This document shows, in pieces, positions 2,843-41,712 of a stretch of DNA of 64,000 bases (positions within the stretch are counted from its first letter, which is position 1; each line of letters opens with the position of its first letter). Below the pieces are notes generated by a model. It was not told the DNA's origin. It saw only the letters and a list, made by a program, of their open reading frames with translations, and did not search any database. A program made the translations under genes and the position numbers. Location: NCBI GenBank assembly GCA_937935355.1, contig CALGYR010000006.1, positions 5,608 to 69,607 of the forward strand. Direction: 5' to 3'. The DNA comes from an uncultured bacterium. Its GTDB lineage: Bacteria; Planctomycetota; SZUA-567; JAKLDR01.

Positions 2843-3946
2843 ATGTCCAGCAGACAGAGAGCAGTTTGCGAGAGCGTTCCCACACGGTCTTCGGCGCAGC
2901 TCGCGGATCAACTCCGCGCCAGGATTTCCAAGGGAACTCTGGCCGGCGGCAGCTTCCTGCCCAGCGAGCGCGAGTTGGCCCGGGAGCAGAAAGTCAGCAG
3001 CAAGACCGCCCGGCGGGCGCTGAAGCTGCTCGAGTCCGAGGCGCTCATCGTCTCGGAAAGCCGCCGCGGCTACCGGGTGCTCTCGCGCGCCAACGACCCG
3101 GACCGGGGCTGCCCGATCGCCATGGTGATCGCCAATCCGCCCGAGTCCGGAGACCGCAGCTTCTACGGCAGCCTGCTGGGCGCGCTCCAGGACGCCGCCG
3201 GGCGCAGGGGCTGGTCGCTCTTGGGCGTGCAGCGCGAGGGGCGCCCGATTGGCGAGGTCGTCGAGCGCCTGCGTGCGGCCCGGGCTTGCGGCGCGGTGGT
3301 CGACTCGCTCGATACGGAACTGCTCGAGGCGGTCAGGCGCCTGGGCGTCCCGGTGGTGCTGGCCGACGCCTGGTTCGCCGACTCGCCCTGCGATGCGGTC
3401 GTCCAGGACGGCTTCGCCGGCGGGGTGCTGGCCGCGGAGTGGCTCGCCGGGCGCGGCCACCGGCGGATCGCCTTCCTGGGTCCGGACCCGCGGGGAGCGG
3501 ACATGCTGGTCGTCGAGCGCTTCTCCGGAGCGGTCGGTGGCCTGGCCCGCTCGGGCCTGGCGCTCGACCCGGGCCTGACCGCAGTGACGCGGCAGGGCGA
3601 TCCGGATGCGGCCGCCAGGTGCGCCCGGGAGTTGCTCTCCCGGGCGGACCGTCCCACCGCGGTGCTGGCCCTCTGGCAGGGCTTCGCCCGGGAGGCGGCC
3701 CGCGCCGCGCGCGAGCTGGGACTGGCCGTGGGCCGCGACCTGGACCTGGTCGGCTGGACGACGAGCCCGGCCCCCGGTGCGCCGGAGGCTACGGGCGCGG
3801 CCGGGCCGGAGCTCTCCGCGGAGGTGGTCTGGAGCCCCGCGGATCTCGCCGAGCTCTGCATTCTGCGCCTGATGCAGCGGCGGGCCGACCCGCGCATGCC
3901 GGCCTCGCTGACCCGCGTTCCGGTGCGGCTCGAAGTTCGCGGATAG
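2843..3946 (+). CDS. AraR-type transcriptional regulator (GntR-family HTH N-terminus + LacI/GalR-type periplasmic-binding-like effector domain), paralog 1
   Basis: GntR HTH 'LPSERELAREQKVSSKTARRALKLLESEALIVSESRRGYRV' followed by a LacI-type sugar-binding fold ('VVLADAWFAD...DAVVQDGFAGGVLAAEWLAGRGHRRIAFLG'). ATG 2843 is preceded by GGGAGG; alternative ATGs at 2825 and 2831. The stop TAG lies directly upstream of the next gene's RBS. Confidence 0.8.
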   Translation: MSSRQRAVCESVPTRSSAQLADQLRARISKGTLAGGSFLPSERELAREQKVSSKTARRALKLLESEALIVSESRRGYRVLSRANDPDRGCPIAMVIANPPESGDRSFYGSLLGALQDAAGRRGWSLLGVQREGRPIGEVVERLRAARACGAVVDSLDTELLEAVRRLGVPVVLADAWFADSPCDAVVQDGFAGGVLAAEWLAGRGHRRIAFLGPDPRGADMLVVERFSGAVGGLARSGLALDPGLTAVTRQGDPDAAARCARELLSRADRPTAVLALWQGFAREAARAARELGLAVGRDLDLVGWTTSPAPGAPEATGAAGPELSAEVVWSPADLAELCILRLMQRRADPRMPASLTRVPVRLEVRG

Positions 3947-10355: not shown

Positions 10356-10375
10356 TGACCCGGCTCATCGCATCC

Positions 10376-10403
10376 TTGACAGTCCGGCCCTCCGGCATAC
10401 AAT
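10376..10403 (+). promoter_or_regulatory. Near-consensus sigma-70 promoter for rpsJ (TTGACA-16-TACAAT)
   Basis: TTGACA at 10376-10381 and TACAAT at 10398-10403 with a 16-nt spacer, ~75 nt upstream of the rpsJ ATG. Confidence 0.5.
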
Positions 10404-10476
10404 ACCCCCCGCGACGCCCGAAGACGGTCTGCGGGCGCAGAAGCAACCCAAAGAGGTAGGTTCGTTCGGAGGCATC

Positions 10477-10785
10477 ATGGCGCAGAATCGGATTCGCATT
10501 CGCATGGAGGCGTACGACCACAAGCTGCTGGACCAGTCCGCCCAGACGATCGTCGAGGCGGCCAAGCGCACCGGCGCGCAGATCCACGGGCCCATCCCGC
10601 TGCCCACCAAGATCGAGCGCTACACCGTGCTGAGGAGTCCCCTGGCCGACAAGAAGAGCCGGGAGCAGTTCGAGATCCGCACGCACAAGCGCATCCTGGA
10701 CATCAGCGAGCCCAACGCCAAGACCATCGGCGCCCTGGGCAAGCTCACCGTCCCGGTCGGCGTGGACATCCGCATCAAGGCGTAG
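10477..10785 (+). CDS. rpsJ: 30S ribosomal protein S10
   Basis: '[76 protein letters not shown]' is near-identical in pattern to bacterial S10. RBS GGAGG upstream. It is not followed by rplC. Confidence 0.95.
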
Positions 10786-10821
10786 CCGGTCGTACCCAGG
10801 TCCCTTCAGGAGGGTCGAGAC

Positions 10822-10911
10822 ATGTGCGGAAGCTGCGGCTGCAAGCCCAGGAAGAAGGCGGCCAAAAAGGCCGTCAAGAAGACCGCCAAGAAGGGCAAAA
10901 AGAAGAAGTAA
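10822..10911 (+). CDS. Candidate 29-aa Cys-x2-Cys-x-Cys / poly-Lys peptide (MCGSCGCKPRKKAAKKAVKKTAKKGKKKK)
   Basis: ATG 10822 is 7 nt after AGGAGG (10809-10814). GC3 is ~90% in this frame versus clearly lower in the overlapping 67-aa track ORF 10824..11027. No homolog recalled. Confidence 0.35.
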   Translation: MCGSCGCKPRKKAAKKAVKKTAKKGKKKK

Positions 10912-10993
10912 CAGCCCGACGCGGTCGGCAAACTGCGTTCAGGCGCGGTCTCATCCCCCGGGTGAGGCCGCGCTGTCTTAGGAGCCCAGATTG

Positions 10994-11086
10994 GCCACAG
11001 ATGCACACAGATAAACGCAGATCTTGAGCCTGGGATTGAGGCCGTCTGTCGGCCCCAATCTGTGTGCATCTGTGTTCATCTGTGGC
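10994..11086. repeat. CACAGATG decamer-repeat locus 1 (inverted pair of 10-bp-phased direct repeats) abutting the LarA-like RBS
   Basis: 10994-11023 GCCACAGATGCACACAGATAAACGCAGATC; 11058-11086 ATCTGTGTGCATCTGTGTTCATCTGTGGC in opposite orientation. Confidence 0.6.
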
Positions 11087-11102
11087 TACCAGGAGAGATG
11101 CC

Positions 11103-12332
11103 ATGGTTGATGCCGCCCCGATGAAGCCGCTCACCGAGGAACAGGTCCGCGCCGCGCTCGAGAAGGGCCTGCGGCCCGAGCAGTTCGCCGGCAAGACCGT
11201 CCTGGTGGTCATCCCCGACTCGACCCGCACCGCGCCGGTGGCGCAGTTCTACCGGCTGCTCTGCGAGATGGTCGGCCCGCGCGCGAAGAAGCTCGACTTC
11301 CTGGTGGCCCTGGGCACGCACATGGCCATGTCCGAGGAGGCCATCATGAAGCTGGTCGGGGCCACCCGCGAGCAGCTCGCGCGGCACCCGGTCTTCAACC
11401 ACGAGTTCCGGGACCCCAAGGAGCTCGTGCAGGTCGGCACCTTCAGCAACGCGGACGTCGAGGAGATCTCCGGCGGGCTGATGAGCTGCTCGGTGCCGGT
11501 GGAGGTCAACCGCCGGGTCAACGAGTACGACCAGCTCGTCCTGGTCGGCCCGGTCTTCCCCCACGAGGTGGTCGGCTTCTCCGGCGGCAACAAGTACCTC
11601 TTCCCGGGCATCGCCGGCGCCCGGATCATCGACATGTTCCACTGGCTGGGCGCGCTGATCACCAACGTCTGCATCATCGGCACGGCCGAGACCCCCGTCC
11701 GGAAGGTCGTGGAGCGCGCCGCGGCGATGGTCAAGACCCCCAAGCTCGCCTGCTGCATGGTGGTCGACCACGGCGAGCTCGTCGGCCTGGAGGTCGACGA
11801 GCCCTACGCGGCCTGGAAGCGCGCCGCGGAGCTGAGCGACCGGCTGCACATCGTCTACCACGAGAAGCCGTACAAGAGCGTGCTCTCCTGCGCACCGCAC
11901 ATGTACGACGACATCTGGACGGCCGGCAAGTGCATGTACAAGCTCGAGCCGGTGGTGGCCGACGGCGGCGAGCTCATCATCTACGCCCCGCACGTCACCG
12001 AGATCAGCTACACCCACGGGAAGGTCATCGACGAGGTCGGCTACCACTGCCGCGACTTCTTCGCCAGGCAGTGGGACAAGTACAGCCGGTACCCGTGGGG
12101 GGTGCTGGCCCACTCGACGCACGTCAAGGGCGCCGGGATGTTCGATGGCGGCCAGGAATGCCCGCGCGTGAACGTGGTGCTGGCCACCGCCATCCCCGAG
12201 GAGCGCTGCCGGAAGGTCAACCTCGGCTACCGCGATCCGAAGTCCATCGACCCCAAGCAGTGGATGAACCGCGAGGCCGAGGGCTACCTCTACGTCCAGA
12301 AGGCCGGGGAGATGCTCTACCGGCTGAAGTAG
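11103..12332 (+). CDS. LarA-like (lactate racemase family, DUF2088) protein
   Basis: 'LVVIPDSTRTAP', 'ALGTHMAM' and 'FPHEVVGFSGGNKYLFPGI' resemble the LarA N-terminal domain and nickel-pincer site region. ATG 11103 is preceded by AGGAGA; the track start 11064 lies inside a repeat. Confidence 0.75.
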   Translation: MVDAAPMKPLTEEQVRAALEKGLRPEQFAGKTVLVVIPDSTRTAPVAQFYRLLCEMVGPRAKKLDFLVALGTHMAMSEEAIMKLVGATREQLARHPVFNHEFRDPKELVQVGTFSNADVEEISGGLMSCSVPVEVNRRVNEYDQLVLVGPVFPHEVVGFSGGNKYLFPGIAGARIIDMFHWLGALITNVCIIGTAETPVRKVVERAAAMVKTPKLACCMVVDHGELVGLEVDEPYAAWKRAAELSDRLHIVYHEKPYKSVLSCAPHMYDDIWTAGKCMYKLEPVVADGGELIIYAPHVTEISYTHGKVIDEVGYHCRDFFARQWDKYSRYPWGVLAHSTHVKGAGMFDGGQECPRVNVVLATAIPEERCRKVNLGYRDPKSIDPKQWMNREAEGYLYVQKAGEMLYRLK

Positions 12333-14994: not shown

Positions 14995-17778
14995 CTACCG
15001 GCCGAAGCAGGCCGGCGCGGCCCGCTCCGCCGCCCGGCGCGATTCCTCCTTCTCTCCCGCGTTCCAGGCGGTCTTGGCGAGCGTGTCCCAGTTCTCCCGG
15101 CAGCGGTCGTCGAGCCGCACGGCCTGGCGCGAGCGCTCCAGCGCCTCCCGGGGGCGGTCGAGCGCCGAGAGCGCCGCAGCCAGGTCGCGCAGCAGGTAGT
15201 CGCGCGCCGGGCCCAGGGCGAGCGCTTCCTCGATCAGTTCCCGGGCCAGGTCCGGGCGCCCGGAGCGCAGGGCCTCCCCGCCCATCCAGCCCAGCAGTGT
15301 CCAGAGCGCGTAGGACGGCTCCGGCGCCGCCGGATCGAGGTCGCGCGCCTGGCGCAGCTTACGGAGGGAGGTCTGCGCATCGCCGGCCGAGGCGGCCGAG
15401 AGCAGCCCCTCGGCCAGCAGCCGGCGGGACATGCGCAGCTTGGACTCCGGGCCGTCGGGGATCGCGCCCGGTCCCGGCTCCCAGAGCCGGGTGACCACCG
15501 TCTCAAGGTTGCGCACGCCCCACTCGCCGCTTCGCGCCAGGCGTCCCTGCGAGAGCAGTTCGGCCAGAGGCAGGTCGTCGCTCGAGGGCCGCGCGCCGTG
15601 GGCCAGTTCCCGGAGCTGCTCCGGCCCGGCCACGCGGTGGGCGAGGACCGCCCCGGGCGAGCCCAGGCCCAGATCGGCGAGCTCCGCGGGCTTGAGCCTT
15701 GAGGACCGGATGCGCGCGGCGAGCTCCCCGGGCTCGGTCGCCACGGCCGCCGGGCCGCGCGAGCCCAGCAGCATGACCACCGGGCGATAGGCGTCCAGGC
15801 ATCCGACCCAGAGGGTCGCGTCCGGGAAGACCTCCAGGAAGGAGCGCACTACCGCGCTGAAAGCCTCCGGCGGCAACTGGAAGAGCGGGATCCACTGGGC
15901 GAAGAGGCCGTCCCCGGCCAGCCGGCTCCGCGCCAGCCGGAAGTACTCCAGCGAGAAGAGGCCGCCGGCCCCCGCGTCCTCCGGGAAGACTATGTCGGTG
16001 ACGATGAGCTCGAACCGGCCGCGCTCGGCGAGCAGCCGCGAGCGGCCGTCGGCGACGCTCACGGCGAAGGTCGCGACCGAATTGTGCGGCCGGAAGGCCC
16101 CGGCGGCGCGCGCCACCGCCGGGGAGAGCTCGGCGCACTCCACCGGGCGGCCCGGCGCCGCGGCGGCGCTCCAGGCGGCGGTTACGCCCGAGCCCAGGCC
16201 GACGTGCAGCGTGCGACCCCGCGCAGCCGGACAGAGCAGGGCCGGCAGCGCGCCCATCCGCTTCTCGACGCGCAGCCACGGCGTCGTGTCCTCGGCCTGC
16301 ATCTTGGGGCCGATGTACAGGCGCCGGACCCGGCGGCCCTCGCTGGGCTCGCGTTCCGCGACGAGGGAGACGACCGCCTCGAGGTCCTCGGTCTGCGACT
16401 CGAGCACGGGCTCGGCCTCCGGGGCGGTCCCCAGGGCACGGAGGCCGTATAGCTCCGTCTGCGCCGCCGGCAGCACCGCCGCGGGCAGCGCCAGGATGAT
16501 CAGCCAGCGCCCGGCCGCGCCGAGCCGGCTGCCCCGGCGAGCCGACCAGAAGGCCAGGACCAGAGCGGCGAGGACGGCTGCGCCGCCGAGGGCGGCCAGG
16601 GTCCACCTGGTGCCCAGGAGGGGCAGGAGGACCAGCGCCCCGACGACCGGACCGGCCACCGAGCCGAGGTCGAGCGCCGCGGCCGCGCCGCCGACCGAGC
16701 GGCCCACGCGGCCGGCCGAGGGGGAGAGCAGGTGGACGAGGAGCGGGAAGGCCGCGCCGAGCGCCAGCATGGCCGGCGCGCAGGCGGCGAAGGCGATGGT
16801 CAGGCTTCCGGAGCCGCGCCCCATGGCCGCGAGCGTCGGCACGGAGAGCCCGGCGAACGCCCCCCCGAGGGCCAGGAGCACCGCGAGCGCCGGCGCCGCC
16901 GACAGGGCCGAGGGCTTGCGGATCAGCCAGCCGCCCAGAAAGGAGCCGGCGCCGAGGGCCAGGATGCAGACCGCCGAGACCGCGGCGAAGGCCCGGATGG
17001 TGCTCGACGAGCCGAAGAGCACCGCACGCAACTGGGCGAGCTCGACGCACAGGACCAGCGCGCCGGCCAGACCGGCGAGGACCAGAGCCGCGGCGCGCGG
17101 CAGGGCCCGGGCTTCCTGTTGCCGGGCCGGCCCGGCGGTGTGCCTGGCGCGCTTCTCGTCGGGCGTGGTCGGATCGCGGGCCAGGAAGAAGCCGGCCGCC
17201 GCCGCGGCGAGGCTGAGCCCGGCGGCCAGGACCACGCTCAGCCGCAGGCCCAGGGCCGGGATGAGCAGCCAGGCCGCCGCGAGCGCGCCGGCCGCGGCCC
17301 CCAGGCAGTTGGCGGCGTGCAGCCGCCCGGCGATGCGCGCGGCGGCGCCCTCGCGACCGGCGGCCGCCCAGCGCGCGACCACGGGAAACGCCCCGCCCAT
17401 CAGACCGGCAGGCAGGAAGAGGAAGAGCGCGGCCAGGGCGAAGCGGGCCGCGCCCGCGGTCAGGGCGCCCGAACCGGCCGGGACCAGGGCGGAGTAGACG
17501 GGCGGCAGCGCCGCGGGCACGGCGAGCAGCGCCGCCCCGCAGAGCGCCGCGCCTAGTTGCAGCAGAGCGAAGAGCCTTCGCGGAGACGCGGAGCGGTCGC
17601 CGATCCGTCCGAACCAGGCCGCCCCGGCGGCCAGCCCGCCCAGGTAGGCGGCCAGCACCGCGGCGGCCGCCGGCGCCGTGCCGCCATAGCTCAGTGCAAA
17701 CCAGCGCGCCCAGACCACCTCGTGGACTAGGCCGGCGAAGCCGGTCAGGAAGAGCAGCAGCGCGAACACGGGCCCCAT
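14995..17778 (-). CDS. Spermidine-synthase-like fused membrane protein (N-terminal multi-TM domain, SpeE-like SAM-dependent domain, C-terminal TPR-like tail)
   Basis: About 12 predicted TM segments (Ala/Leu-rich). Then 'LHVGLGSGVTAAW' (SAM-binding GxGxG) and 'DIVFPEDAGAGGLFSLEYFRLARSRLAGDGLFAQW' (SpeE-like). Start set at the internal ATG 17778 because a MITE-like element overlaps the track start 17835. Confidence 0.7.
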   Translation of the reverse strand: MGPVFALLLFLTGFAGLVHEVVWARWFALSYGGTAPAAAAVLAAYLGGLAAGAAWFGRIGDRSASPRRLFALLQLGAALCGAALLAVPAALPPVYSALVPAGSGALTAGAARFALAALFLFLPAGLMGGAFPVVARWAAAGREGAAARIAGRLHAANCLGAAAGALAAAWLLIPALGLRLSVVLAAGLSLAAAAAGFFLARDPTTPDEKRARHTAGPARQQEARALPRAAALVLAGLAGALVLCVELAQLRAVLFGSSSTIRAFAAVSAVCILALGAGSFLGGWLIRKPSALSAAPALAVLLALGGAFAGLSVPTLAAMGRGSGSLTIAFAACAPAMLALGAAFPLLVHLLSPSAGRVGRSVGGAAAALDLGSVAGPVVGALVLLPLLGTRWTLAALGGAAVLAALVLAFWSARRGSRLGAAGRWLIILALPAAVLPAAQTELYGLRALGTAPEAEPVLESQTEDLEAVVSLVAEREPSEGRRVRRLYIGPKMQAEDTTPWLRVEKRMGALPALLCPAARGRTLHVGLGSGVTAAWSAAAAPGRPVECAELSPAVARAAGAFRPHNSVATFAVSVADGRSRLLAERGRFELIVTDIVFPEDAGAGGLFSLEYFRLARSRLAGDGLFAQWIPLFQLPPEAFSAVVRSFLEVFPDATLWVGCLDAYRPVVMLLGSRGPAAVATEPGELAARIRSSRLKPAELADLGLGSPGAVLAHRVAGPEQLRELAHGARPSSDDLPLAELLSQGRLARSGEWGVRNLETVVTRLWEPGPGAIPDGPESKLRMSRRLLAEGLLSAASAGDAQTSLRKLRQARDLDPAAPEPSYALWTLLGWMGGEALRSGRPDLARELIEEALALGPARDYLLRDLAAALSALDRPREALERSRQAVRLDDRCRENWDTLAKTAWNAGEKEESRRAAERAAPACFGR

Positions 17779-17815
17779 TCTACACCGGGCGGGCGGGAAG
17801 TCACGCCGGTCCGGG

Positions 17816-18009
17816 CGTTCCCCAGGGTCTTTCAATTTTGCCCAACGGGCCTACAACTTGGGGCCGGCGGTGCTATCGCCGCCGGCCCCAAGTTCCCTCC
17901 AGAGCCGATCCTCGCTCGAGAGCAGGGGACCGAAAGCCAAGTCCTGACAGCAGGACTTGGCTTTCAGGTAGGCCCGTTGGGCAGAATTAAGAGACCCTGG
18001 GGCGTTCCC
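17816..18009. mobile_element. MITE-like structured element: 39/42-bp terminal inverted repeats enclosing two perfect hairpins
   Basis: Left arm 17816-17854 (CGTTCCCCAGGGTCTTTCAATTTTGCCCAACGGGCCTAC) is the near-exact reverse complement of right arm 17968-18009. Internal palindromes: 17855-17894 (AACTTGGGGCCGGCGG...CCGCCGGCCCCAAGTT) and 17932-17965 (GAAAGCCAAGTCCTG...CAGGACTTGGCTTTC). Confidence 0.5.
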
Positions 18010-18029: not shown

Positions 18030-18110
18030 CTACCTGCCGGCCGCAGCCTTCTTGTACCGGTAGGCCCACATCGTCCCGTTGTCGCGGCCGTCGCAGGCGG
18101 TGTGCAGGTT
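18030..18110 (-). pseudogene. Out-of-frame 3' fragment of a Kelch-family gene ('NLHTACDGRDNGTMWAYRYKKAAAGR*') directly after the HEAT/Kelch gene stop
   Basis: 56 of 58 nt identical to the 3' end of the paralog at 37811..39169 (…GGTAGGCCCACATCGT[C/A]CCGTTGTCGCGGCCGTCGCAGGCGGTGTGCAGG), shifted +1 relative to the 18109..20781 reading frame. Confidence 0.45.
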
Positions 18111-20781
18111 ACTTGTCCGCCGACGGCCGCCTTCCTCCGTCCGCCCCGAAAAACGCCTTTGTGCCAACGGGCACGTTCTTCAGCCGGAAGGCGACCATCT
18201 TGCCTGATCTGAGGCCGATGAAGACGTTGTGCTGCGGATCGAAGTCGAAGACGACCATTTGGAAATTGCCGTCGGCAGCCTTGCGCCATGTGTCGGTTTC
18301 CCTGTCATAGGCATAGGCCCCGGTCGAGCGGAGCACTGTCAGGTCGCGGTTCAACGAGTCGAAGACCATCTGCATGCCCTGGCTGCCGCGCTCCCCTTCG
18401 GGCAGCGGACTTTTCGACTTGCGGGCCGTGCCCGTCCCAGGACCCATCAGCCACACGCCGAAATCCTCCGGCGTCTGACCGGCGCGCTTCTTGTGGTTCC
18501 TGACCTCGCGCAGCACCAGGTCGGCAACCGGGTCGTACCCGGCGGCTTCGAATACATAGAATGCGTGCAGACGTGGCAAGCCCGCAAACGGAAGTTTGAC
18601 CAGGTTTTTCGTCCGGGTATCTATAGCGTCGGTGACCGGTCCCATGAACTCGTTGTAGACGTGTCCACGTCGAGAGTCGGCGATGTACCACTTCGGTCCC
18701 TCGCCGGTCGTGACCGTGGTTTGGGGGTAATGACCGTCGAAACGGTCCAGGGTCAAGTCGTAGGTGGCCGCGTCGGTGCGGCGGGTCATGTCCGTGGGAA
18801 ATCCGGTCGAATTGTTCATCCAGAACAGGCGCGATTGCCAGCAGTAGACCAGCCCCCTAGAACACCCGCGGCCGGCCCTGACTTCGTTGAAGAACAAACC
18901 GGACACCTCGTTGGGACGGATGACGAACTGCTTGCCGCTGGCCGGGTCGTAGCCGATGCACTCGTTCGAATAGCACATGTCACAGCCGCCGTAACGCAAC
19001 CACACTCCCGCACGGGCATCCACTGCGCAACGGGTCTCACCGTACGAGGCGACGGTCACCGCTTTGTCGAGGACGACCACTTTCCCGATCGGGAAATCGG
19101 CGCCGAATTGAGGGTTGACCGGGTTGTAGGCGGGAATAAACCCATCCAATTCCTTCCCGACGCGCGCGAGCAGTTCCGCATGTTCCTGTCCTCCCGCTTC
19201 GACTTCCCTGAGCATCGCCCAGGCGGAACGTCTGGGCAGGTACTCCTTCTCGCCTTCGAGAAGTGCGGCCAGCGCGCGGGCGGCCTCCGGTCCGCCTATG
19301 CGGCCAAGAGCCAGTGCCGCGCGGCTCCTTGTCACGCGGTTCGAGGACGAGAGTGCCCGGACCAGCGGCTGGACCGCCGCCAGCTGGGCGCTCTCGCCCA
19401 GGCCCCGTGCAGCGGCCGTCGCCGCGGAGAGATTCTCCGAGTCCAGCAGGGGGGCGATCCTGTCTATGGCGTCCGGCCCACCGATATAGCCGACGACCAA
19501 CGGCACCGAAAAGCCGCGAACAGTCAGAAACTTCTCCAGATATGGCAGGGCCGGCGGTCCGGAAAAGCGTGCCAGCAGAAACTCCGAATGGAGCATCCAG
19601 CGCTCGACGCCCAGCCGCGGGCCGAGTTCTTCGGCCAGAGCCTTGCCGTCGCACACCGCCGCCAGCGCGCGCTTGCCGACATCGGCGGAACTCCCCGATT
19701 GATTGCTTGCTGGCCAAGGCTGGCCGCGCCCGGCCAACTCGCGGAAGAATGCCGTCGCCGCGGAGCCGCCGGAGTAGTCCGCCAGGGCGGCTTTTGCCCG
19801 GATCTGGATGTGTTCGCTCTTGGTGGTTTTGCATAGCTCGATCAGCTTCACGATATCCTCCTCCGTCCCGAACGCCGCTATGAACGGGCCCGAATCCCGG
19901 GTGCCGATTTCATCGCGAACTGCGGCATCCCAATGTTTGGCCAGATCCGGTTTCTGGACGGGTCGCGGGACGGCCGTTGGGCTTTCCCAGCGACGCAGCG
20001 CCCTGGCAGCCGCCTGGCGCACCAGCAGGCTGGGGTCGCCCGAGAGTTTCTTCGCCACCGCCTGCCCCGAGCCGCAACCGGCCGCGAGCCGGGCCGCCGC
20101 CTCCCGCAGGGGCACATAAGACGAGCCGGCCAAGGCTTCGAGGGCCGCCGCCGTGATCGGGTCAGCGAAGGCCGCGCCCAGCGGTGCTTGCCACAGGCCG
20201 GCATCGCGAGGGGAGGCCCGCGAGTAGAGCTTGTCGCCGGCGACCCACCGGACAATGTTGAAGTCCTCCTCGCCGTCGAGCCGGCGCAGTGCGTGCGCAG
20301 CCGAAAGTGCCACAGCCGGGTCGCCCCCCGCCGCCGCCTTTGCCAGCGCCGGCCAGGCGCGCGCGTCCTTGAGCCAGCCCAGCAGCCACGCCGCGCGGAT
20401 CGCCTCCGCCCCGCCTGCCGACAGCTTTGCCTCGAGTTCCTTCCGCTTCGCTTCGTCCGGCCGGTGCGCCACCAACACCCCGCCGATCACCTCCACGCGG
20501 ATGCCCGTGCCTTTCTCGAAGTCAGCGGCTGGCTTCGATGCGGAGACGTTCTCGCCGCCGACACGACCGCGTCCGGAGATCCCGTCGACGGTCGCCCAGC
20601 GCAGCCCCGCTGCCTCCCCCAACCGCCAGGCGAACTCATGCTCGTTCCACCAGCGGGTCTCCAGCGAGACAGTGGTGGACAGCGATGGCTCCCCGGTCCG
20701 ACCGAACTTCGGGGCTGCGCACAGCCCGCTCAGCACGGCGAGGATGACGGCCGCAGTGTATCTCATCCCATGACGTTTCAT
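18109..20781 (-). CDS. Secreted HEAT-repeat protein with a C-terminal Kelch-family beta-propeller
   Basis: Signal peptide 'MRYTAAVILAVLSGLCAAP'. Repeated 'A...ALG.LG...A...L..LL.D....VR..AA.AL' HEAT/PBS-lyase-like units. C-terminal region homologous to the paralogs ('YDRETDTWRKAADGNFQMVVFDFDPQHNVF'). Start overlaps the regulator stop (ATGA). Confidence 0.7.
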   Translation of the reverse strand: MKRHGMRYTAAVILAVLSGLCAAPKFGRTGEPSLSTTVSLETRWWNEHEFAWRLGEAAGLRWATVDGISGRGRVGGENVSASKPAADFEKGTGIRVEVIGGVLVAHRPDEAKRKELEAKLSAGGAEAIRAAWLLGWLKDARAWPALAKAAAGGDPAVALSAAHALRRLDGEEDFNIVRWVAGDKLYSRASPRDAGLWQAPLGAAFADPITAAALEALAGSSYVPLREAAARLAAGCGSGQAVAKKLSGDPSLLVRQAAARALRRWESPTAVPRPVQKPDLAKHWDAAVRDEIGTRDSGPFIAAFGTEEDIVKLIELCKTTKSEHIQIRAKAALADYSGGSAATAFFRELAGRGQPWPASNQSGSSADVGKRALAAVCDGKALAEELGPRLGVERWMLHSEFLLARFSGPPALPYLEKFLTVRGFSVPLVVGYIGGPDAIDRIAPLLDSENLSAATAAARGLGESAQLAAVQPLVRALSSSNRVTRSRAALALGRIGGPEAARALAALLEGEKEYLPRRSAWAMLREVEAGGQEHAELLARVGKELDGFIPAYNPVNPQFGADFPIGKVVVLDKAVTVASYGETRCAVDARAGVWLRYGGCDMCYSNECIGYDPASGKQFVIRPNEVSGLFFNEVRAGRGCSRGLVYCWQSRLFWMNNSTGFPTDMTRRTDAATYDLTLDRFDGHYPQTTVTTGEGPKWYIADSRRGHVYNEFMGPVTDAIDTRTKNLVKLPFAGLPRLHAFYVFEAAGYDPVADLVLREVRNHKKRAGQTPEDFGVWLMGPGTGTARKSKSPLPEGERGSQGMQMVFDSLNRDLTVLRSTGAYAYDRETDTWRKAADGNFQMVVFDFDPQHNVFIGLRSGKMVAFRLKNVPVGTKAFFGADGGRRPSADK

Positions 20782-31679: not shown

Positions 31680-34319
31680 TCACTGCCCGTCCTTCATCTC
31701 CTCCATTATCGCGGTCGCGCGGTCGAACCGGAGCGCCCAGACCTTGCGCGCGCTGGAGTTGTTGAGCAGCACCAGCTTCAGCTTCGGGTCGTAGGCCAGG
31801 GCGTCGGAGTAGCTGAACGGTTTGTCCTTATGCTCGACCTCCTTGCCGCCGTCGACCCACTTGAGATCCAGCCAGTAGAACTTGCCGTCGTTGAGGTCCC
31901 ATGCGTAGCTGCGGACCTTGCCATCCGGGCGCTTGAGCGGGCACATGCCGAGAACCAGATCGGCCTCCGGCAGATATACGGCCTCGCCGCCGCGGAAGAT
32001 CCACTTGTCCAAGGCCTTGGGCTTGGCGAAGGCGATCTTCTCGCTGGTGCCCTTGGCGATGTCGTACCGGAAGATCTCCTCGGCGTAGGTCATCCACAGG
32101 CAGTCGCGCTTGGAGTCGTGGATCACGCAGGGCCCGTCGCACCAGCCGACGTCGCCCTTGGGCCTGGGCCCGTTCCAGGGCAGCTTCCGCCAGGCGCCGG
32201 CCCTGGCGTCGAAGCGGAAGAGCCCCTTGTCCGACCAGGTGACCGCGCCGGCCGGCGTGGCCTTGATGTGGCTGTGCATCACCCCGCGATGCTCCAGCCC
32301 GGGCATGGGCACCGGCTCCCACTCGCGGACCAGCGGGTCGTAGACGCGCTCGAAGTAGAACATCTTGCGGGCGGTCGGGTCGTAGCTGTAGCCCTTGTAG
32401 GCGTGCATGGGCACGTGGGCGCGGTCGTGGAACGACAGCGGCACCGGCTGGCTGGCGTAGACGTTCTCGATGGGATCGTCGGGGTGATAGCCGATGGTCC
32501 AGAAGCCGCCGAGCACGCTGAAGTGGGCCACGTCGTTCTCGTGGCTGGTGGCGTGCCCGCCGCCCCAGAGCAGGAACTGGTGGCGGTCGGTGTCGTAGGC
32601 GCTGGTGCCCCAGCGGTTGGTGGCGCCCGGCGCGTACCTGGGGAACTTGAACGCGGTCCACTGGTTGGCGGGCAGGCCGTCGATGAACTGCCTGGCCGTC
32701 GCAGCCGCGTCGGCCGGGGCGGCCGCCTCCCAGGCGGCCGGATCGATCCGGTTGAAGTCGTACGCCCCGGCAGACGCGCCGCGCTCGGCGGTGCCGGCGG
32801 CATCGGCCCTGGCCGCGTCCACCCGGCAGGCCCAGGTCTGGAGGGCGTCGTGGCCGACGGTGGTCACGCAGACCAGAACGTCGTCCGGCCCCACCGCGCC
32901 TGGCTGGATGCCCATGCGGTCCGCCGCCGGGCCGGCCCCGCCGGAGGGCAGGTGAGCCAGCAGCTGCCAGGCGTTGGCGTCCGGGTCGTAGGTCCAGATC
33001 TCCTGGTCGAGCGGCCCGCGGCTGTAGCCGCCGGCCAGCACCACCCTGCCGGCCGTGGGCAGCCAGCCCAGGACGTGGCCCGCGCGCGGCGAGGGGCATT
33101 TCTCCGGGAACTTCTGCTCCCAGGTGCGCGTAGCGCAGTCGTAGAGCCAGGTGTCGGACAGCGTCCGGTCGAGCCCGTCGCCGCCGAAGAGCACGATCTT
33201 TTTCCGGACCGGGTCGAAGACGGTCTGCGACCGCGCCCGGCCGGGCGGCTCGGGCGAGAGCGCGTCGACGGCCTGCTCGAAGATGACCCGGGCGGCGCGG
33301 ACCGCGGCGATCTTTTCCGGGGTTATCGCACCGGAGAGCGTCGGGCCGGCCGCCTTGACCGCGGAAGAGGCGGCGGTCAGACGCTTGGCGGCCATCTCCC
33401 CGGCCGGCTTCTCGCTCCCGGCCAGACCCGCAGCCGCCACCTCGCCGGCGAACTTCCCGGTTGCAGCGGCCAGCTTGGCGGCCTCGGCGACGAGGTCCAC
33501 CTTGGCCTCCTCCTCGGTCTCGGCCACGGCGTGGCGGCTGGAGCAGCGGCCGAGCAGCCTCTTGGCCTCCCAGCGCAGGTCCTTCGATTTCGCGAAGAGC
33601 TCCTTGAGCTTGGCCGAGCCGAATTCGAGCTTCCGCCACTCGTTCTTCTCGATGCTGTAAGTCCAGGTGGAGACGTCGGCGCTGCCGCCGCCCCCGCCGG
33701 TGTGGAGGATCTCCTTGTTCACCGGGTCGTGGCACATCGAGCCCCAGACCAGGCAATTCCCGCGCGGCGCGGTCTTGCGCTCACCCCAGGTCCGCCTGGC
33801 GGTGTCGTAGACGAACATCTCCTTGCCGGGCGACAGGTAGATCCGGCCGTCGTCCGGGACATGACACCAGGCGTAGCTGTTGGTGACCACGGGCGCCCAC
33901 TGTCCGCCGGCGACCAGGCGCAGGTGCTCGCCGTCCTTGTAGAACGGGCCGCCGCCCAGGCCGTTGCCGTGCCTCTCGCGGTCCTTGGCATACTGCTCGC
34001 CCAGCGGTCCGGACTCCGGGCGGTCCTGTTCCAGGCCTGCCGGGTAGGCGTTGAACCACCGGCCGGAGGCCAGGTCGAACTCCTCGGTGTCGTAGTGGCG
34101 GGCGATCCCGCCGTAGCCCCGGCCCTGCGTGCCGCCGGTCAATACGAACCGTTTGATCCCGGAGGCGTAGACGAACAGCGGCTGCTTGCGGCCGCCGGTC
34201 TTCGACTCGGCCAGCTTCACCCAGGCGTTGGCCGGGGCATCCTTGAGCGCGGACGGCTCGGCAGCGGTCAGAGGACTGCCAAGCCAGAGCGCAATCGAAA
34301 TGCCGATCATCAGACGCAT
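31680..34319 (-). CDS. Large secreted Kelch-like beta-propeller protein (family member; two propeller-like halves)
   Basis: ATG 34319 with GGGAGGACGAAG RBS; signal peptide 'MRLMIGISIALWLGSPLTAAEP'. Repeated 'W.YD....W' Kelch-like blades. Confidence 0.75.
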   Translation of the reverse strand: MRLMIGISIALWLGSPLTAAEPSALKDAPANAWVKLAESKTGGRKQPLFVYASGIKRFVLTGGTQGRGYGGIARHYDTEEFDLASGRWFNAYPAGLEQDRPESGPLGEQYAKDRERHGNGLGGGPFYKDGEHLRLVAGGQWAPVVTNSYAWCHVPDDGRIYLSPGKEMFVYDTARRTWGERKTAPRGNCLVWGSMCHDPVNKEILHTGGGGGSADVSTWTYSIEKNEWRKLEFGSAKLKELFAKSKDLRWEAKRLLGRCSSRHAVAETEEEAKVDLVAEAAKLAAATGKFAGEVAAAGLAGSEKPAGEMAAKRLTAASSAVKAAGPTLSGAITPEKIAAVRAARVIFEQAVDALSPEPPGRARSQTVFDPVRKKIVLFGGDGLDRTLSDTWLYDCATRTWEQKFPEKCPSPRAGHVLGWLPTAGRVVLAGGYSRGPLDQEIWTYDPDANAWQLLAHLPSGGAGPAADRMGIQPGAVGPDDVLVCVTTVGHDALQTWACRVDAARADAAGTAERGASAGAYDFNRIDPAAWEAAAPADAAATARQFIDGLPANQWTAFKFPRYAPGATNRWGTSAYDTDRHQFLLWGGGHATSHENDVAHFSVLGGFWTIGYHPDDPIENVYASQPVPLSFHDRAHVPMHAYKGYSYDPTARKMFYFERVYDPLVREWEPVPMPGLEHRGVMHSHIKATPAGAVTWSDKGLFRFDARAGAWRKLPWNGPRPKGDVGWCDGPCVIHDSKRDCLWMTYAEEIFRYDIAKGTSEKIAFAKPKALDKWIFRGGEAVYLPEADLVLGMCPLKRPDGKVRSYAWDLNDGKFYWLDLKWVDGGKEVEHKDKPFSYSDALAYDPKLKLVLLNNSSARKVWALRFDRATAIMEEMKDGQ

Positions 34320-34369
34320 CTTCGTCCTCCCTCGAGTTGACATGGCAGCCCTCTTCTCTTGCGTCTCAT

Positions 34370-36331
34370 CTACCTTGCGCCCGCACCCGGCCCGGCGCCT
34401 ATCTCGGCGCAGAGCGAAAACAGTTTGTCGTCATCCTCCTGCCAGGAGGGGAGGAAGGCCGCCGCCCTTCCGGGCCCGGGGGCGTTCCCGCCACTGGCGC
34501 CAGGCATGATCTTGAGATTCCGGGCTGCACGCTTCGCCAGGAAGTCCTGGCACCTGGCGGCCAGCGCCGCGTCGAGCTTTCCCCCATCGACGGCCTTGAG
34601 CAGGCAGACCAGGGCCTCGACGACCTGCATGCCCTCCGCGAACGCCTCCAGCCTCTCGGTGCCCAGCGGCCCGCCGGGCCCCGGGGCGACGAAGCTCACG
34701 ATGCTCTCGTTCATGCCCCCGCCTTCGTCAGAAAAGTTGATGGGCCGCTTCGTGTCCGGCATGAACCAGTAATCGGCGCCGCTCTGGCCGAGCCCGGCCC
34801 AGCCGGTGTGGAGGATGATCTCGGGATTGAAGCGATGGCCGAAGAGGCCGTCGTGCTGGCGCAGGATGCAGGCCCCGGCGCCGTAACGCGACCACACCCA
34901 GACGTTGCGCCCGCCCGTCTTCCAGGGCATGGCGTACTCCGGCTTGCGCGGGCTGCCCACCCCCCAGACGTGCTCACGGAAGGCGACCGGGACCGATTGG
35001 CCATCGACAGTCTTGTAGCTGGAGGGGTTCTTGTGGGACGTGCTAAACCAAGGCAGTTTGGGCGCCGCCTTCAGGAAGGCTGTCGCCGTCTCCTTGGTGG
35101 GATAGGCGTCCCCGGCGGTTCCGATCGCGGCCACATCCAGCCAGCCGCGTTTCTCGAGCCGTTTCGAGACCTCGGCCAGGACCGGCCGCCAGAAATCCGC
35201 GCTCGCGTCCGTGCCGTAGAACGGCTGGCTCATCGGCTCGACTCTGCCGGTGGCCGGGTCGAGCCGGCTCACCTTCACCGGGTTCTCCCCCGGGGCCTTG
35301 ACCAGAGGCGCCCCCGGCCCGATGCCACCATCGGCCTTGGGACGGAAGACGTTCAGAAGGAGCGCCCGGGGCTTGCCGAGCTTCTTCTCGTAGAGGTCCA
35401 GGTACCTGTCGAAGGGCGCGAAGTCGTGTTCGTACTTGCCGTTACCCTTGTCGATCCACCTGACCATCGACTCGGCGTTGCCCGCATTGAAGGCATTGGC
35501 GATCAGGTGCACCGGGCACAGACCGTTGCCCGTCGGCCTGATGAGGTCGAGGACCTGGCCCATCAGTTCGAAGTGCCGCTCCGACCACAGGGGTGCGCCG
35601 TAGCGCCGGGCGCTTGACTCCTGCGACTGCCAGATCTGGGGCCGGCAGGTCAGGTCCTTGAGGTCCGGCATGGTCCAGCCGTAGACCTTGATGCCCAGCG
35701 GCACCTTGGTGGCGGCCAGCCCCTCGGCGGAAACGGTCACCTCGGCGCGATAGACGCCGGGAGCGGCATCGGCCGGCACCAGCACGGTGAGCCAGACCGG
35801 CTGCATGGCGCCCACCGGCACCGGCGGGTCGCTGTACTTCTGGCTGGGGAACCCGGGACGCACGCTGCGAACCGGGACCTCGGCCGGCGCCTCGGTCAGC
35901 AGGACATCGAAGCGGTTGTCGGGGACGAAGCGCGAGCTCTTGCTGGACGACTCGGCCACTGCTGGGAAGCGCACCAACACCCGCCCGGACGGGATCGTGC
36001 CCTTGCCGTCTTCCCGCGCCAGATCGCCGACCGTGGTCCTGATGTTCCGGATCGCCTTGGCCGAAGCCAGAACCACCTGGCCGCTGGCGCGGCCGTTGCG
36101 CGGGGCGATCAGGTCGATCTCCAGCTTCTTTTCGCCCTGCGCCGGAGTGTCGAAGACGGTCAGGTCCCGCGGCGGCTGGCAGACCCAGACCTGCACGCCG
36201 TCCGGGCGCTGCGGCGCCGCGCTCGGCATCTCCGGAGCCGGAGCCGGCGGGCGTTCGCCGGCCTGAGCTGCGCCGAACGACGCCAGGCTGCAGATCAGAA
36301 CGCTTGCGGTAAGGCTGCTCGTCAGACGCAT
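34370..36331 (-). CDS. Secreted DUF4091-like glycoside-hydrolase-like protein (paralog of 5208..7871)
   Basis: ATG 36331 with GGGAGGACGAAG; signal peptide 'MRLTSSLTASVLICSLASFGAAQA'. Shares the 'QPVWLTV.VPADA.PG.Y...' block and 'FDRYLDL' with the 5208 gene. The 104-aa N-extension in the track is rejected. Confidence 0.7.
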   Translation of the reverse strand: MRLTSSLTASVLICSLASFGAAQAGERPPAPAPEMPSAAPQRPDGVQVWVCQPPRDLTVFDTPAQGEKKLEIDLIAPRNGRASGQVVLASAKAIRNIRTTVGDLAREDGKGTIPSGRVLVRFPAVAESSSKSSRFVPDNRFDVLLTEAPAEVPVRSVRPGFPSQKYSDPPVPVGAMQPVWLTVLVPADAAPGVYRAEVTVSAEGLAATKVPLGIKVYGWTMPDLKDLTCRPQIWQSQESSARRYGAPLWSERHFELMGQVLDLIRPTGNGLCPVHLIANAFNAGNAESMVRWIDKGNGKYEHDFAPFDRYLDLYEKKLGKPRALLLNVFRPKADGGIGPGAPLVKAPGENPVKVSRLDPATGRVEPMSQPFYGTDASADFWRPVLAEVSKRLEKRGWLDVAAIGTAGDAYPTKETATAFLKAAPKLPWFSTSHKNPSSYKTVDGQSVPVAFREHVWGVGSPRKPEYAMPWKTGGRNVWVWSRYGAGACILRQHDGLFGHRFNPEIILHTGWAGLGQSGADYWFMPDTKRPINFSDEGGGMNESIVSFVAPGPGGPLGTERLEAFAEGMQVVEALVCLLKAVDGGKLDAALAARCQDFLAKRAARNLKIMPGASGGNAPGPGRAAAFLPSWQEDDDKLFSLCAEIGAGPGAGAR

Positions 36332-37810: not shown

Positions 37811-39169
37811 CTACTTCTTCTCCGCCGCCCGCTTGTAGCGGTAGGCCCACATCGTACCGTTGTCGCGGCCGTCGCAGGCGGTGTGCAGGATGTGGGCGTT
37901 GAGCTCCGGGTCGTAGAAGCCGGTCCAGGTGGGGTTGCCCTGGCGCTTGAGCTCAGGCGGATCCTTTGCAGCCACCTCCCACTCGTTCTTCTCCGGGTGA
38001 TAGACGTAGACGCCGGGCGCCTCGTCGCCCTTGGAGCGGTGGAAGAACAGTACCACCGCGTCGTTGACGCTGTCGTAGAAGAGCATGGCGCGGTTGGTCG
38101 CGTAGCTCGTGGGGGTCGGATTCACCTTCGGCTCCAGGCGCGAGAAGGTCTCGGTCTTGACGTCAAACATCCACAGGGCGCTCTCGCCAGGCTTGATCTC
38201 CAGGCCCTTGGCCGGGTAGATGCCGCCGGCCAGATAGATCCGGTCGCGCTTGCTGTCGTAGCAGCTGTTCGGGTCAATTTGCCAGGGAGGAGGGGTTCCT
38301 TTGCGTTTGATCTCCACCCAGTCCTGAGCCCCGGGATCGTACCAGGCGATATGGGAACTGCGGTTCTTGTAGCCGAAAGCCTTCTTAACGGTGGGAACGT
38401 AGACAAGAGTGGCGCCGAAACCGCCCGGTGAGTTTGGATTGGCGGTGCGATAGCGTTCGAAGCGACCGGTCCTGGAGTTGTAGATGTACGGGCTGGAGCC
38501 CTTGCTTGCAGCCCACACCGGCTCTTTGCCCGCCGCCCGGGCCTTGTCCGTGGACTCCTTGTGCGCCTTCAGGGCTGCGACTCTTCCGATGATGCCCTTG
38601 TGAAAGTCGCCCTCCTTCCAGTACGCCCCCGGGCACCCCATGTTCATGAAGAGCCCGCGGTCGGTGTCGTATGTCACCATGCCGTAGGCGTGCACCATTG
38701 ACGCGATGGGCAGGGGCTGGCCGTCCGGGGCCACTTCGAAGCCGGTCTTCTCGTCGAAGCCGATCTGCCCGTAACCCTCCTTGGCGTGAATGCCCGGATA
38801 CACGCAGATCCACCTGTGCTGGTTGAGGTCGTAGAACCAGAGGTCGTCGTGGTAGTGCCCGTCGGGCTTGACCATCCCGTGCGGGCCCTCGCCGAAGACG
38901 AACGCCCCCCGCAGGTCCGGGGCGAAGGGCGCCACCGGCGACCAGCTTCGCCCCCGGGCCTTGCCCCACTTGGGATCGGGAGCAGGAGAGCCGAGATCTA
39001 CCCACTGGTTGTCGCCGAGCGCCTTGATCTTCGCCAAGTGCTCGCCCTTCGGCTCGCTCGGCAGCGCGGCCAGCGGGCCCTTGCGCTCGGCCTCGGCAGG
39101 CTCTCCTGCCCCGAGAGCCCCGGCGGTCAGGGCCAGAACCAGAGCCACTGCACAGACATGCCTTGCCAT
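37811..39169 (-). CDS. Secreted Kelch-like beta-propeller protein (tandem array member)
   Basis: ATG 39169; signal peptide 'MARHVCAVALVLALTAGALGAGEP'. 'HLAKIKALGDNQWVDLGSPAPDPKWG...HYHDDLWFYDLNQHRWICVYPG...CDGRDNGTMWAYRYK'. Confidence 0.8.
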   Translation of the reverse strand: MARHVCAVALVLALTAGALGAGEPAEAERKGPLAALPSEPKGEHLAKIKALGDNQWVDLGSPAPDPKWGKARGRSWSPVAPFAPDLRGAFVFGEGPHGMVKPDGHYHDDLWFYDLNQHRWICVYPGIHAKEGYGQIGFDEKTGFEVAPDGQPLPIASMVHAYGMVTYDTDRGLFMNMGCPGAYWKEGDFHKGIIGRVAALKAHKESTDKARAAGKEPVWAASKGSSPYIYNSRTGRFERYRTANPNSPGGFGATLVYVPTVKKAFGYKNRSSHIAWYDPGAQDWVEIKRKGTPPPWQIDPNSCYDSKRDRIYLAGGIYPAKGLEIKPGESALWMFDVKTETFSRLEPKVNPTPTSYATNRAMLFYDSVNDAVVLFFHRSKGDEAPGVYVYHPEKNEWEVAAKDPPELKRQGNPTWTGFYDPELNAHILHTACDGRDNGTMWAYRYKRAAEKK

Positions 39170-39191
39170 GAGTCTTTCTCCCCTCTCTGGT

Positions 39192-40328
39192 TCAGTTCGT
39201 CTCGGCGGCGGGTTTGCCGCCCGCATCGCCCTTGAAACTGAACTCCTTCGGCGGCTGGTAGGCCCAGACGCCCGATCCGCTCACCAGCAGGGCAACCTTG
39301 TCGACGGGGTCGTACCGGAACCGGCTCCAGACCGTGCCTTTCAACTCCGGGACCTGGGAGTCGACGTCGCGCCACTTCCCGGTCGCGCAGTCGAAGAGCG
39401 CCAGACGGCTGGGGCTGGGAGGATCCCCGCGCGGCACGTGGAGATAGAGGGCCGCGTCGTGCTCTGGCAGGTAGGTCAGCCCGGCGCCGCCGCTGGCCCC
39501 CTCCAGGGGATGGGCCTCGACGGACATGTCCTCCAGGTTCACCGTGCAGGCGGCGTCCGCGGGCGTGCTGCCGACGATCATGACGCGGTCGCTCTTGGGC
39601 AGGTACTCCATCTGGACGTTGATGCCAACCGGAACGATCTTCGACTTCACTGGGTGCCGCTTCCAGGTCTTCGCCTTGAGGTCGAACTGCTGAAGCTCCG
39701 TGCGCTCCTTGCCGTAGGCCCAGACGGTGTCGCGCTTGGAATCGTAGCAGCAGGCCTTGGCGTAACCGAACCCCCTGGCGTTGTCCGACAGCTGCGTCCA
39801 CTTGTTGTCTTTGAACGAGTAGCTCCAGGCATCGGACGGCACCATGCATGTGGGCTTGATGTCCCCCCAGCCCGGCCCGCAGCCGCCGAATATGAACATG
39901 GCCCCCGAGCTCTTCAGGAAGCACAGCTGGTTGTAGCTGTGCCGGGTGTAGGGCTTGTCGGAGTCCTTGAGCTTGCCGTTCTTGTGGTCGAGGTTGTCGT
40001 TGGTGTACCGCGCCCGGGCATCGGGCTCGTACATCTTCTGCCAGGTGAGCGTCGCCGGCGAGAAGGCGCAGACCTCGTTGCCCCAGTAGTCGGCGTGGCC
40101 GCCACCGAAGATCAGGAACCGATGGTTGACCGAATCGTAGACCCCGCCCGAATAGGCGAGGATCCCCCGGGGCGCCGGGGCGAAGCCGGCCACCTTCTCC
40201 CAGGAGTTCTCGGCGATGGCCGTCAGCTTGGGATTCGGCTCATGTCCGGGCTCCCCGGCCGAGGCGACTCCCAGGCTGCCGGCCAGAACGACCGTCGCGA
40301 GACTGCCCGTTGCCCAGCGCATGCTCAT
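39192..40328 (-). CDS. Secreted Kelch-like beta-propeller protein (tandem array member, divergent)
   Basis: Signal peptide 'MSMRWATGSLATVVLAGSLGVASAGEP'. Kelch-like 'FIFGGCGPGWGD...WSYSF..NKWTQL' blades. The ATG overlaps the regulator stop (ATGA). Confidence 0.75.
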   Translation of the reverse strand: MSMRWATGSLATVVLAGSLGVASAGEPGHEPNPKLTAIAENSWEKVAGFAPAPRGILAYSGGVYDSVNHRFLIFGGGHADYWGNEVCAFSPATLTWQKMYEPDARARYTNDNLDHKNGKLKDSDKPYTRHSYNQLCFLKSSGAMFIFGGCGPGWGDIKPTCMVPSDAWSYSFKDNKWTQLSDNARGFGYAKACCYDSKRDTVWAYGKERTELQQFDLKAKTWKRHPVKSKIVPVGINVQMEYLPKSDRVMIVGSTPADAACTVNLEDMSVEAHPLEGASGGAGLTYLPEHDAALYLHVPRGDPPSPSRLALFDCATGKWRDVDSQVPELKGTVWSRFRYDPVDKVALLVSGSGVWAYQPPKEFSFKGDAGGKPAAETN

Positions 40329-41473: not shown

Positions 41474-41712
41474 GTCACTTTCAGCACACTGCGAAATACA
41501 CCGGACTGAGCTCGGAGTTGTCGAAATTCCTTGAAACTCGCCGGCGGCAGTTCCACTAACCGAGCTGTTGAATCACACTTAGACAGTGCATATCAAGCAA
41601 TTGGCGCTTCCCATTGGCGCGGAGCCGGTGTATTCTGCCCCAGTCGTCTCCGCAGCTGCACACAGATGTGCAATCTGCGCGACGGGGATGAGTTGAGGAA
41701 CTGGAGACAACC

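Follow-up and report, generated by a model that had tools for sequence, protein, structure and literature searches.

What is the striking palindromic block that lies in the spacer between two minus-strand genes of the window, the 64,000-nt stretch of uncultured planctomycete DNA analysed here? An earlier note on this DNA had described a 194-bp element and offered three readings of it: a non-autonomous transposable element, a REP/BIME-like repeat or a structured RNA. The first of these is borne out by a target-site duplication, a second copy and ends identical to those of transposase-bearing insertion sequences (ISs) of the ISAs1 family, and we consider it very probable that the block is a MITE, that is, a non-coding, non-autonomous DNA transposon with ISAs1-type ends that is mobilized in trans (Table 1).

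The G+C content of the element is 62–63%, against 69% in the window. A repeat scan placed inverted arms at 17820–17854 and 17968–18002 (35 nt, 91% complementary, 113 nt apart); the terminal inverted repeats themselves are 32 nt long, reach 35 nt with a chance extension, and contain three mismatches. The 32-nt arm sequence is present at two places only in the 64 kb, and none of 100 dinucleotide-preserving shuffles gave any match (0/100). Folding of the whole block gave a predicted free energy of −160.5 kcal/mol, compared with −94.9 ± 5.0 kcal/mol in shuffles (z = −13.2). Both arms begin with CAGGGTCT, and the 32-nt inverted ends are flanked by a perfect 10-bp direct repeat, GGGCGTTCCC, for which the chance of a 10/10 match at the local composition is about 4 × 10−6. 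The empty target site, as reconstructed, reads ...CCGGTCCGGGCGTTCCCGCCCGAGCC....

These boundaries change the extent of the element. Arms of 39 and 42 nt had been described; the inverted repeat and its three mismatches stand, but the lengths do not, because the outermost bases belong to the 10-bp direct repeat. The length of 194 bp has to be shortened as well: homology to a second copy and to parent-type ISs runs from C17823 to G17999, so that the element measures 177 bp. At this size and without coding capacity it falls within the range of 70–300 bp and the non-coding character by which MITEs are defined, and a protein search with its translated frames, joined into one concatenated query, found no relatives at E ≤ 1 among 5.8 billion. 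The two perfect internal hairpins of 15–16 bp are present as described. Both contain the hexamer ACTTGG/CCAAGT (at 17856, 17888, 17937 and 17955), which occurs four times in the 177 bp compared with 0.375 times per kb in the window. We considered this hexamer as a subterminal transposase site, but it is missing from the ends of related ISs, which leaves it no clear candidate for one. The two hairpins may have arisen from one another by an old duplication.

Table 1. Features of the element and its neighbourhood, in window coordinates.
Feature	Coordinates	Strand	Basis
Fused MFS/spermidine-synthase-like protein with TPR, 927 aa	14995–17778	−	Pfam MFS_1, TPR; downstream gene
Left target-site duplication copy, GGGCGTTCCC	17813–17822		Perfect 10-bp direct repeat abutting element end
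Element proper (very probable MITE), 177 bp	17823–17999		Limits of homology to L017 copy (91%, 179 nt) and IS ends
Left terminal inverted repeat, CAGGGTCTTTCAATTTTGCCCAACGGGCCTAC	17823–17854	+	20/21 to left terminal inverted repeat of ISs on L015/L018/L019/L028/L029
Internal hairpin 1	17855–17894		Perfect 16-bp stem 17855–17870/17879–17894, 8-nt loop
Variable spacer, 37 nt	17895–17931		Between hairpins; 9/16 inter-copy differences
Internal hairpin 2	17932–17965		Perfect 15-bp stem 17932–17946/17951–17965, 4-nt loop
Right terminal inverted repeat (reverse complement CAGGGTCTCTTAATTCTGCCCAACGGGCCTAC)	17968–17999	−	3 mismatches against left arm; 19/21 to IS left terminal inverted repeat
Right target-site duplication copy, GGGCGTTCCC	18000–18009		Perfect 10-bp direct repeat
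HEAT-repeat protein, 890 aa	18109–20781	−	Pfam HEAT_2; upstream gene; called in source record

The earlier note had tied its transposon reading to flanking direct repeats and to further copies, and both exist. By scanning metagenome contigs with the outer-arm pattern CAGGGTCTNTNAATTNTGCCC, we identified a second copy on contig L017 (Ga0302242_1008703, 72% G+C) that is 91% identical over 179 nt and has the same end bases. The homology is confined to the stretch from the C of CAGGG to the corresponding G, and the flanks on L017, where the copy lies between a 277-aa ORF and, downstream, an AraC-type regulator (judged from its translation), are unrelated to those in the window. A repeat also flanks this copy (GGCGCAAGAG/GGCGCAAAAA, 8/10 positions; the chance of at least 8/10 is about 10−3). 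Because an interior that is not that of an IS recurs at this unrelated locus with its own flanking repeat, the 177-bp form has transposed or been copied at least once.

The known copies thus number two, in unrelated contexts. The scan of the metagenomes yielded 25 matches, most of them chance matches in low-GC gut contigs, whereas this one copy and five IS loci were real. No other copy was found in the 64-kb window, in approximately 21 kb of a relative (85–90% nucleotide identity) or, by blastn, in plasmids, and a scan of viral contigs for the element returned chance matches only. Among GTDB representative genomes, a collection outside which the source genome lies, the inner-arm 19-mer TTNTGCCCAACGGGCCTAC had six bare chance matches of about 20 nt and no element.

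The ends of the element lead directly to the ISAs1 family. The consensus of the four arms of the two copies, CAGGGTCTTTCAATTCTGCCC, is identical at 21/21 positions to the left ends of ISs on contigs L015, L018, L019, L028 and L029. The individual arms differ from it at 1, 2, 0 and 2 positions, none of them shared, a pattern of separate decay of the arms away from a sequence that is the same as the IS left end. The terminal 21 nt of the left arm are the putative transposase-binding end. On all five contigs, flank divergence starts exactly at the C of CAGGG, and an ORF starts around 60 nt inside the IS end. The IS reading frames carry the Pfam domains DDE_Tnp_1_assoc (PF13808) and DDE_Tnp_1 (PF01609). 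Once the two frames of the L015 product are joined, it matches the NCBIfam model NF033564 (ISAs1 family transposase) with 234.5 bits over 1–314/314, the cut-off being 70 bits. An inverted copy of the end lies 1,207–1,210 bp away in L019 and L028, which makes loci of this type complete insertion sequences. Across the IS clade there is little variation in the terminal 17 nt, CAGGGTCTTTCAATTCT, from which L049 and L051 differ at one or more positions.

The hallmarks of the ISAs1 family are a terminal inverted repeat of 14–22 bp starting with CAGGG and a 10-bp direct repeat (PMC11946415); in ISArsp11 the inverted repeat reads CAGGGCTGATGC... and the direct repeat is again 10 bp (PMC6305408). The element in the window has both a CAGGG-initiated terminal inverted repeat and a 10-bp direct target repeat, features it shares with ISAs1 of Aeromonas salmonicida, ISArsp11 of Arthrobacter and Francci3_2330/2941 of Frankia (PMC11946415, PMC6305408). 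Closest to it is an environmental clade of ISs of about 1.2 kb (L015, L019, L028, L037 and L049), whose terminal 21 nt are the arm consensus and whose one clean insertion, a complete IS on L037 (118–1326, 1,209 bp), likewise has a perfect target duplication of 10 bp on its flanks, GTTGGTCGGT. Of the four complete copies, the remaining three (L019, L028 and L049) show no target duplication, which we treat as uninformative since they lie on contigs of 1.4–2.5 kb, in which the flanks of a multi-copy repeat can be chimeric.

The element differs from these ISs in several respects. They are 1,207–1,210 bp long and encode an NF033564 transposase, whereas the element is 177 bp long and encodes nothing, and the window as a whole encodes no ISAs1-type transposase; because the cognate ISs elsewhere do encode one, the element is an ISAs1-family derivative and not an ISAs1-family IS. 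Its inverted repeat is 32 nt long and extends beyond the approximately 17–21 nt that are shared, both of its arms carry the TGCCC of a left end in place of the TCACC or TCAGG found at IS right ends, and neither the inner 11 nt of the arms nor the 113-nt interior has a counterpart in the ISs compared. As the agreement between arms and ISs stops at 21 nt, the direct parent of the element is not among the ISs found.

A protein search with the transposase returned 3,037 relatives at E ≤ 1e-30, most of them on contigs of about 1.2 kb, as expected for a multi-copy repeat collapsed by assemblers. The ISAs1 family is a single-ORF family. In this clade, nearly every transposase is divided between two frames, with the break at a homopolymer run, and among the best 120 of the 3,037 matches, 114 are N-terminal products of 209–270 aa and six are full length (for example, P0121 on L049, 376 aa). 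The frame break lies at about nt 600–640 of the IS in L015 and L029 (GGGGAAAAAAGGGG, with the slippery heptamer A AAA AAG, requiring −1), in L019 (an A5 run, requiring −1) and in L028 (an A7 run, requiring +1), and at about nt 700–740 in L035 and L037 (TTTCCCCC(C), requiring +1). The split frames may reflect programmed frameshifting or transcriptional slippage, or else widespread decay.

Taken together, the sequence comparisons suggest an origin in which the left terminal inverted repeat of an ISAs1-family IS would have supplied both ends of the element. A DDE transposase of the ISAs1 family, produced elsewhere, in the present genome or in an earlier one, would bind the terminal ~17–21 bp of both ends and so mobilize the element in trans. 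Insertion into a target cut with a 10-bp stagger, followed by gap repair, would have left the flanking GGGCGTTCCC duplication, and the interior, comprising the two hairpins and the spacer, would be passenger sequence unrelated to the IS. The landing site is the 330-bp spacer between the HEAT-repeat gene and the fused MFS/spermidine-synthase gene of a Planctomycetota MAG.

Among the alternatives, the one that survives best is that the block is a functional structured RNA or cis-regulatory structure (a small RNA, an attenuator, a terminator or an mRNA-stabilizing or -processing hairpin) maintained for that role, whether or not its origin was mobile. The extreme predicted fold agrees with this, as does the location of the element in the 5′ region of one gene and on the read-through path from another. 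However, no family in Rfam 15 reaches its gathering score, the best being asX1 (33.6 bits against 70) and mir-4018 (25.6 against 66), both of which cover hairpin 1 only; the Xanthomonas small RNAs asX1 and sX7 were set aside as sub-threshold matches to a GC hairpin. An intrinsic terminator was also rejected, with no T-tract terminator and no terminator-like site on either strand between 17650 and 18250, and so was a tRNA origin, there being no tRNA-like fold. The two copies have the same orientation relative to their flanking genes, but this is expected by chance in 50% of cases at n = 2, and the genes that adjoin them are unrelated.

The differences between the two copies bear on this alternative more closely. 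The copy in the window and that on L017 differ at 16/177 positions, of which nine fall in the 37-nt spacer, none in the 40 nt of hairpin 1, two in hairpin 2 and five in the 64 nt of the arms. The palindromic parts are thus better conserved than the spacer (7/140 versus 9/37 differences; Fisher p = 0.0012), although arms that serve as transposase-binding ends would be expected to change less. In hairpin 2 of L017 there are two one-sided T>C changes, which break pairs on the plus strand; on the minus (transcribed) strand, which carries both neighbouring genes, G.U pairs are kept. Against a maintained structure, no change between the copies is compensated on both sides, and each mismatch in the long stem arose separately, by a change on one side only that departs from the IS consensus. 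The structured RNA of the earlier note is not upheld by these data, and we regard a structure kept for a role of its own as improbable.

Even so, the spacer differs by 24% between the two copies, while hairpin 1 has no change and hairpin 2 has two. Based on two sequences, this low divergence could reflect constraint on the hairpins, and it could equally reflect the way in which palindromes are copied or repaired. A bolder reading is that this is the first recognized ISAs1-derived MITE family, in Planctomycetota, in which both internal hairpins are selected, either as a structure for mobilization or as a host RNA module that insulates or tunes the MFS/spermidine-synthase gene, rather than being carried as passengers; we hold this to be unlikely.

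A further and very unlikely alternative is a REP, REPIN or BIME-type element, in which palindromic units would have been spread by a RAYT (an IS200/IS605-type tyrosine transposase) and the two hairpins would be bracketed by inverted GTAG-tagged units. The resemblance consists of two perfect GC-rich palindromes in an intergenic region, in inverted orientation, and of inner arm ends that read ...CCTAC and GTAGG..., GTAG being the REP tag; GTAG repeats have been reported in the PVC superphylum, which includes Planctomycetes (PMC3733652). In the element, however, when the strand running from a hairpin to its nearer arm is read, GTAG comes after the hairpin, which is the wrong side, and beyond it there is only a 4-bp mini-stem (an 11-nt mini-palindrome), whereas a REP unit is a palindrome of 20–40 bp with an unpaired GTAG or CGTC tag at one end. 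REPs are high-copy sequences, whereas neither hairpin recurs separately in the sequence searched, that is, the 64 kb and 21 kb of the close relative. The 10-bp target duplication and the CAGGG ends are those of ISs with a DDE transposase, and target duplications are not known as a feature of REP or REPIN elements; the REP/BIME-like repeat of the earlier note is not supported. That a full-length ISAs1-family IS lost its interior by deletion at this site and never moved as a miniature is also very improbable. The ends of the element are IS ends, and many IS copies in the clade appear degenerate, their reading frames being split. Against this, the 177-bp structure recurs with its non-IS interior at another, unrelated site that has a flanking repeat of its own; both arms resemble the left IS end and neither the right; and the interior has no similarity to the ISs.

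As a probable MITE, the element belongs to a known class of bacterial element, of which Correia/NEMIS of Neisseria, RUP of Streptococcus pneumoniae, ERIC/YPAL of Yersinia and Nezha of cyanobacteria are classical members (PMC3733652). Like these, it is within 70–300 bp, has terminal inverted repeats, is non-coding, lies in an intergenic region beside coding sequences, has a strong predicted fold and is presumed to be mobilized by a transposase that recognizes the inverted repeats. Unlike them, it derives from another parent IS family, is known from two copies rather than tens to hundreds, and has unusually long arms plus two extra perfect hairpins. The same concept of two transposon ends around non-coding DNA, mobilized in trans, underlies the TIMEs, the Tn3-derived inverted-repeat miniature elements (PMC4133298). 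Their parents are Tn3-family transposons, whereas that of the present element is of the ISAs1 family. Tn3-family elements make 5-bp duplications, not 10-bp ones. No description of an ISAs1-derived MITE was found in the searchable literature, a scope outside which the ISfinder registry lies, and this MITE family looks undescribed.

That a striking palindrome can be explained as mobile DNA rather than as regulatory RNA is mainly of value for annotation: the boundaries of the element are fixed and the start of the neighbouring gene is intact. It also links a large and apparently undescribed environmental clade of the ISAs1 family to a non-autonomous derivative, and the 21-nt end sequence together with the 10-bp target signature can be used to find more copies. 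If members of the population differ in whether they carry the element, its presence would mark recent transposition in this uncultured planctomycete, and the difference would offer a natural experiment on a hairpin of about −130 to −160 kcal/mol placed 44 nt upstream of a start codon.

Gene calls on both sides agree that the site is intergenic between two minus-strand genes, as the earlier note had it. The same note had the block overlapping the first in-frame ATG of the downstream gene, but this ATG, at 17778, lies 44 nt outside the element. The 927-aa product that starts there is the one recorded for the source contig; it matches database protein P0001 over its whole length at 100% identity, and homologues of P0001 carry the name fused MFS/spermidine synthase. 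On the other side, the HEAT-repeat gene ends with a stop codon 110 nt from the element (109 nt intervening). Because the element lies between two minus-strand genes, read-through or a long 5′ leader would carry its fold, and a read-through transcript is predicted to place a fold of about −130 to −160 kcal/mol just upstream of the start codon of the downstream gene; an effect of the insertion on the neighbouring genes is possible. The only sigma-70-like promoter match in the spacer, GTGACT-16-TAGAAT at 17777–17804 on the minus strand, is located between the element and the downstream gene, and its −10 hexamer overlaps the ATG at 17778.

The gene content of the window, with sulfatase, GH123, giant PKD/cadherin proteins and long ECF sigma factors, fits Planctomycetota. 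Its S10 protein falls into a cluster (at least 90% identity) with that of one named Planctomycetota bacterium. An independent assembly of the same population (L047; ENA ERZ724101, NODE_25411) is 100% identical from window position 20475 to 17841, where its contig ends inside the left arm of the element. A break of this kind would be in keeping with a repeated sequence, but the inverted repeat within the element may also be its cause. A search for an empty site found none: even the closest homologues of the downstream gene share no more than 66% identity and lack synteny, and the members of the HEAT and GntR protein clusters come from the same population and are 100% identical. In the relative with 85–90% nucleotide identity (L043–L046) the sequence is rearranged, without the HEAT/MFS gene pair nearby; it comes from JGI metagenomes (Ga0302248, Ga0302239) numbered close to that of L017 (Ga0302242). 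Contig L043 (JGI 3300028629) matches window positions 10375–12329, 31689–36234 and 40367–41505 at 81–90% nucleotide identity in rearranged blocks, and the S10–LarN pair is followed by different genes in it, indicating that synteny is lost quickly in this lineage.

The L017 copy sits in the loop of another palindrome, CGGAAAAGGGGACATTCTgCTTTT ... AAAAGtAGAATGTCCCCTTTTCCG, at about 1080–1350 (about 3125–3400 in reverse-complement coordinates), right after the stop codon of the upstream ORF. When empty targets were reconstructed, that of L017 was strongly palindromic (z = −5.5), and those of the window and of the complete IS on L037 were not significantly structured (z = −1.2 and 0.0, respectively). 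These three targets thus give no grounds for proposing a general preference for hairpins.

Directly after the stop codon of the HEAT-repeat gene, at 18030–18108 on the minus strand and 20 nt from the target duplication of the element, there is a 68-nt copy of the 3′ end of a second ORF, at 37811–39226 (92.6% identity). The copy was compared with window 37811–37889, and the ORF encodes 471 aa ending in ...LHTACDGRDNGTMWAYRYKRAAEKK; translation of the copy would give ...LHTACDGRDNGTMWAYRYKKAAAGR, terminated by a stop of its own at 18030–18032, in a frame shifted relative to the HEAT-repeat gene. It appears to be what remains of a deleted paralogue or else the product of a partial duplication. 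In the 3′ half of the HEAT-repeat gene (about 18150–19250) the G+C content falls to 53–65%, compared with the window average of 69%, and no domain match was obtained for this part. By its resemblance to the 37811–39226 ORF this half looks β-propeller-like, and the HEAT-repeat gene itself carries a diverged version of the motif in the 68-nt copy.
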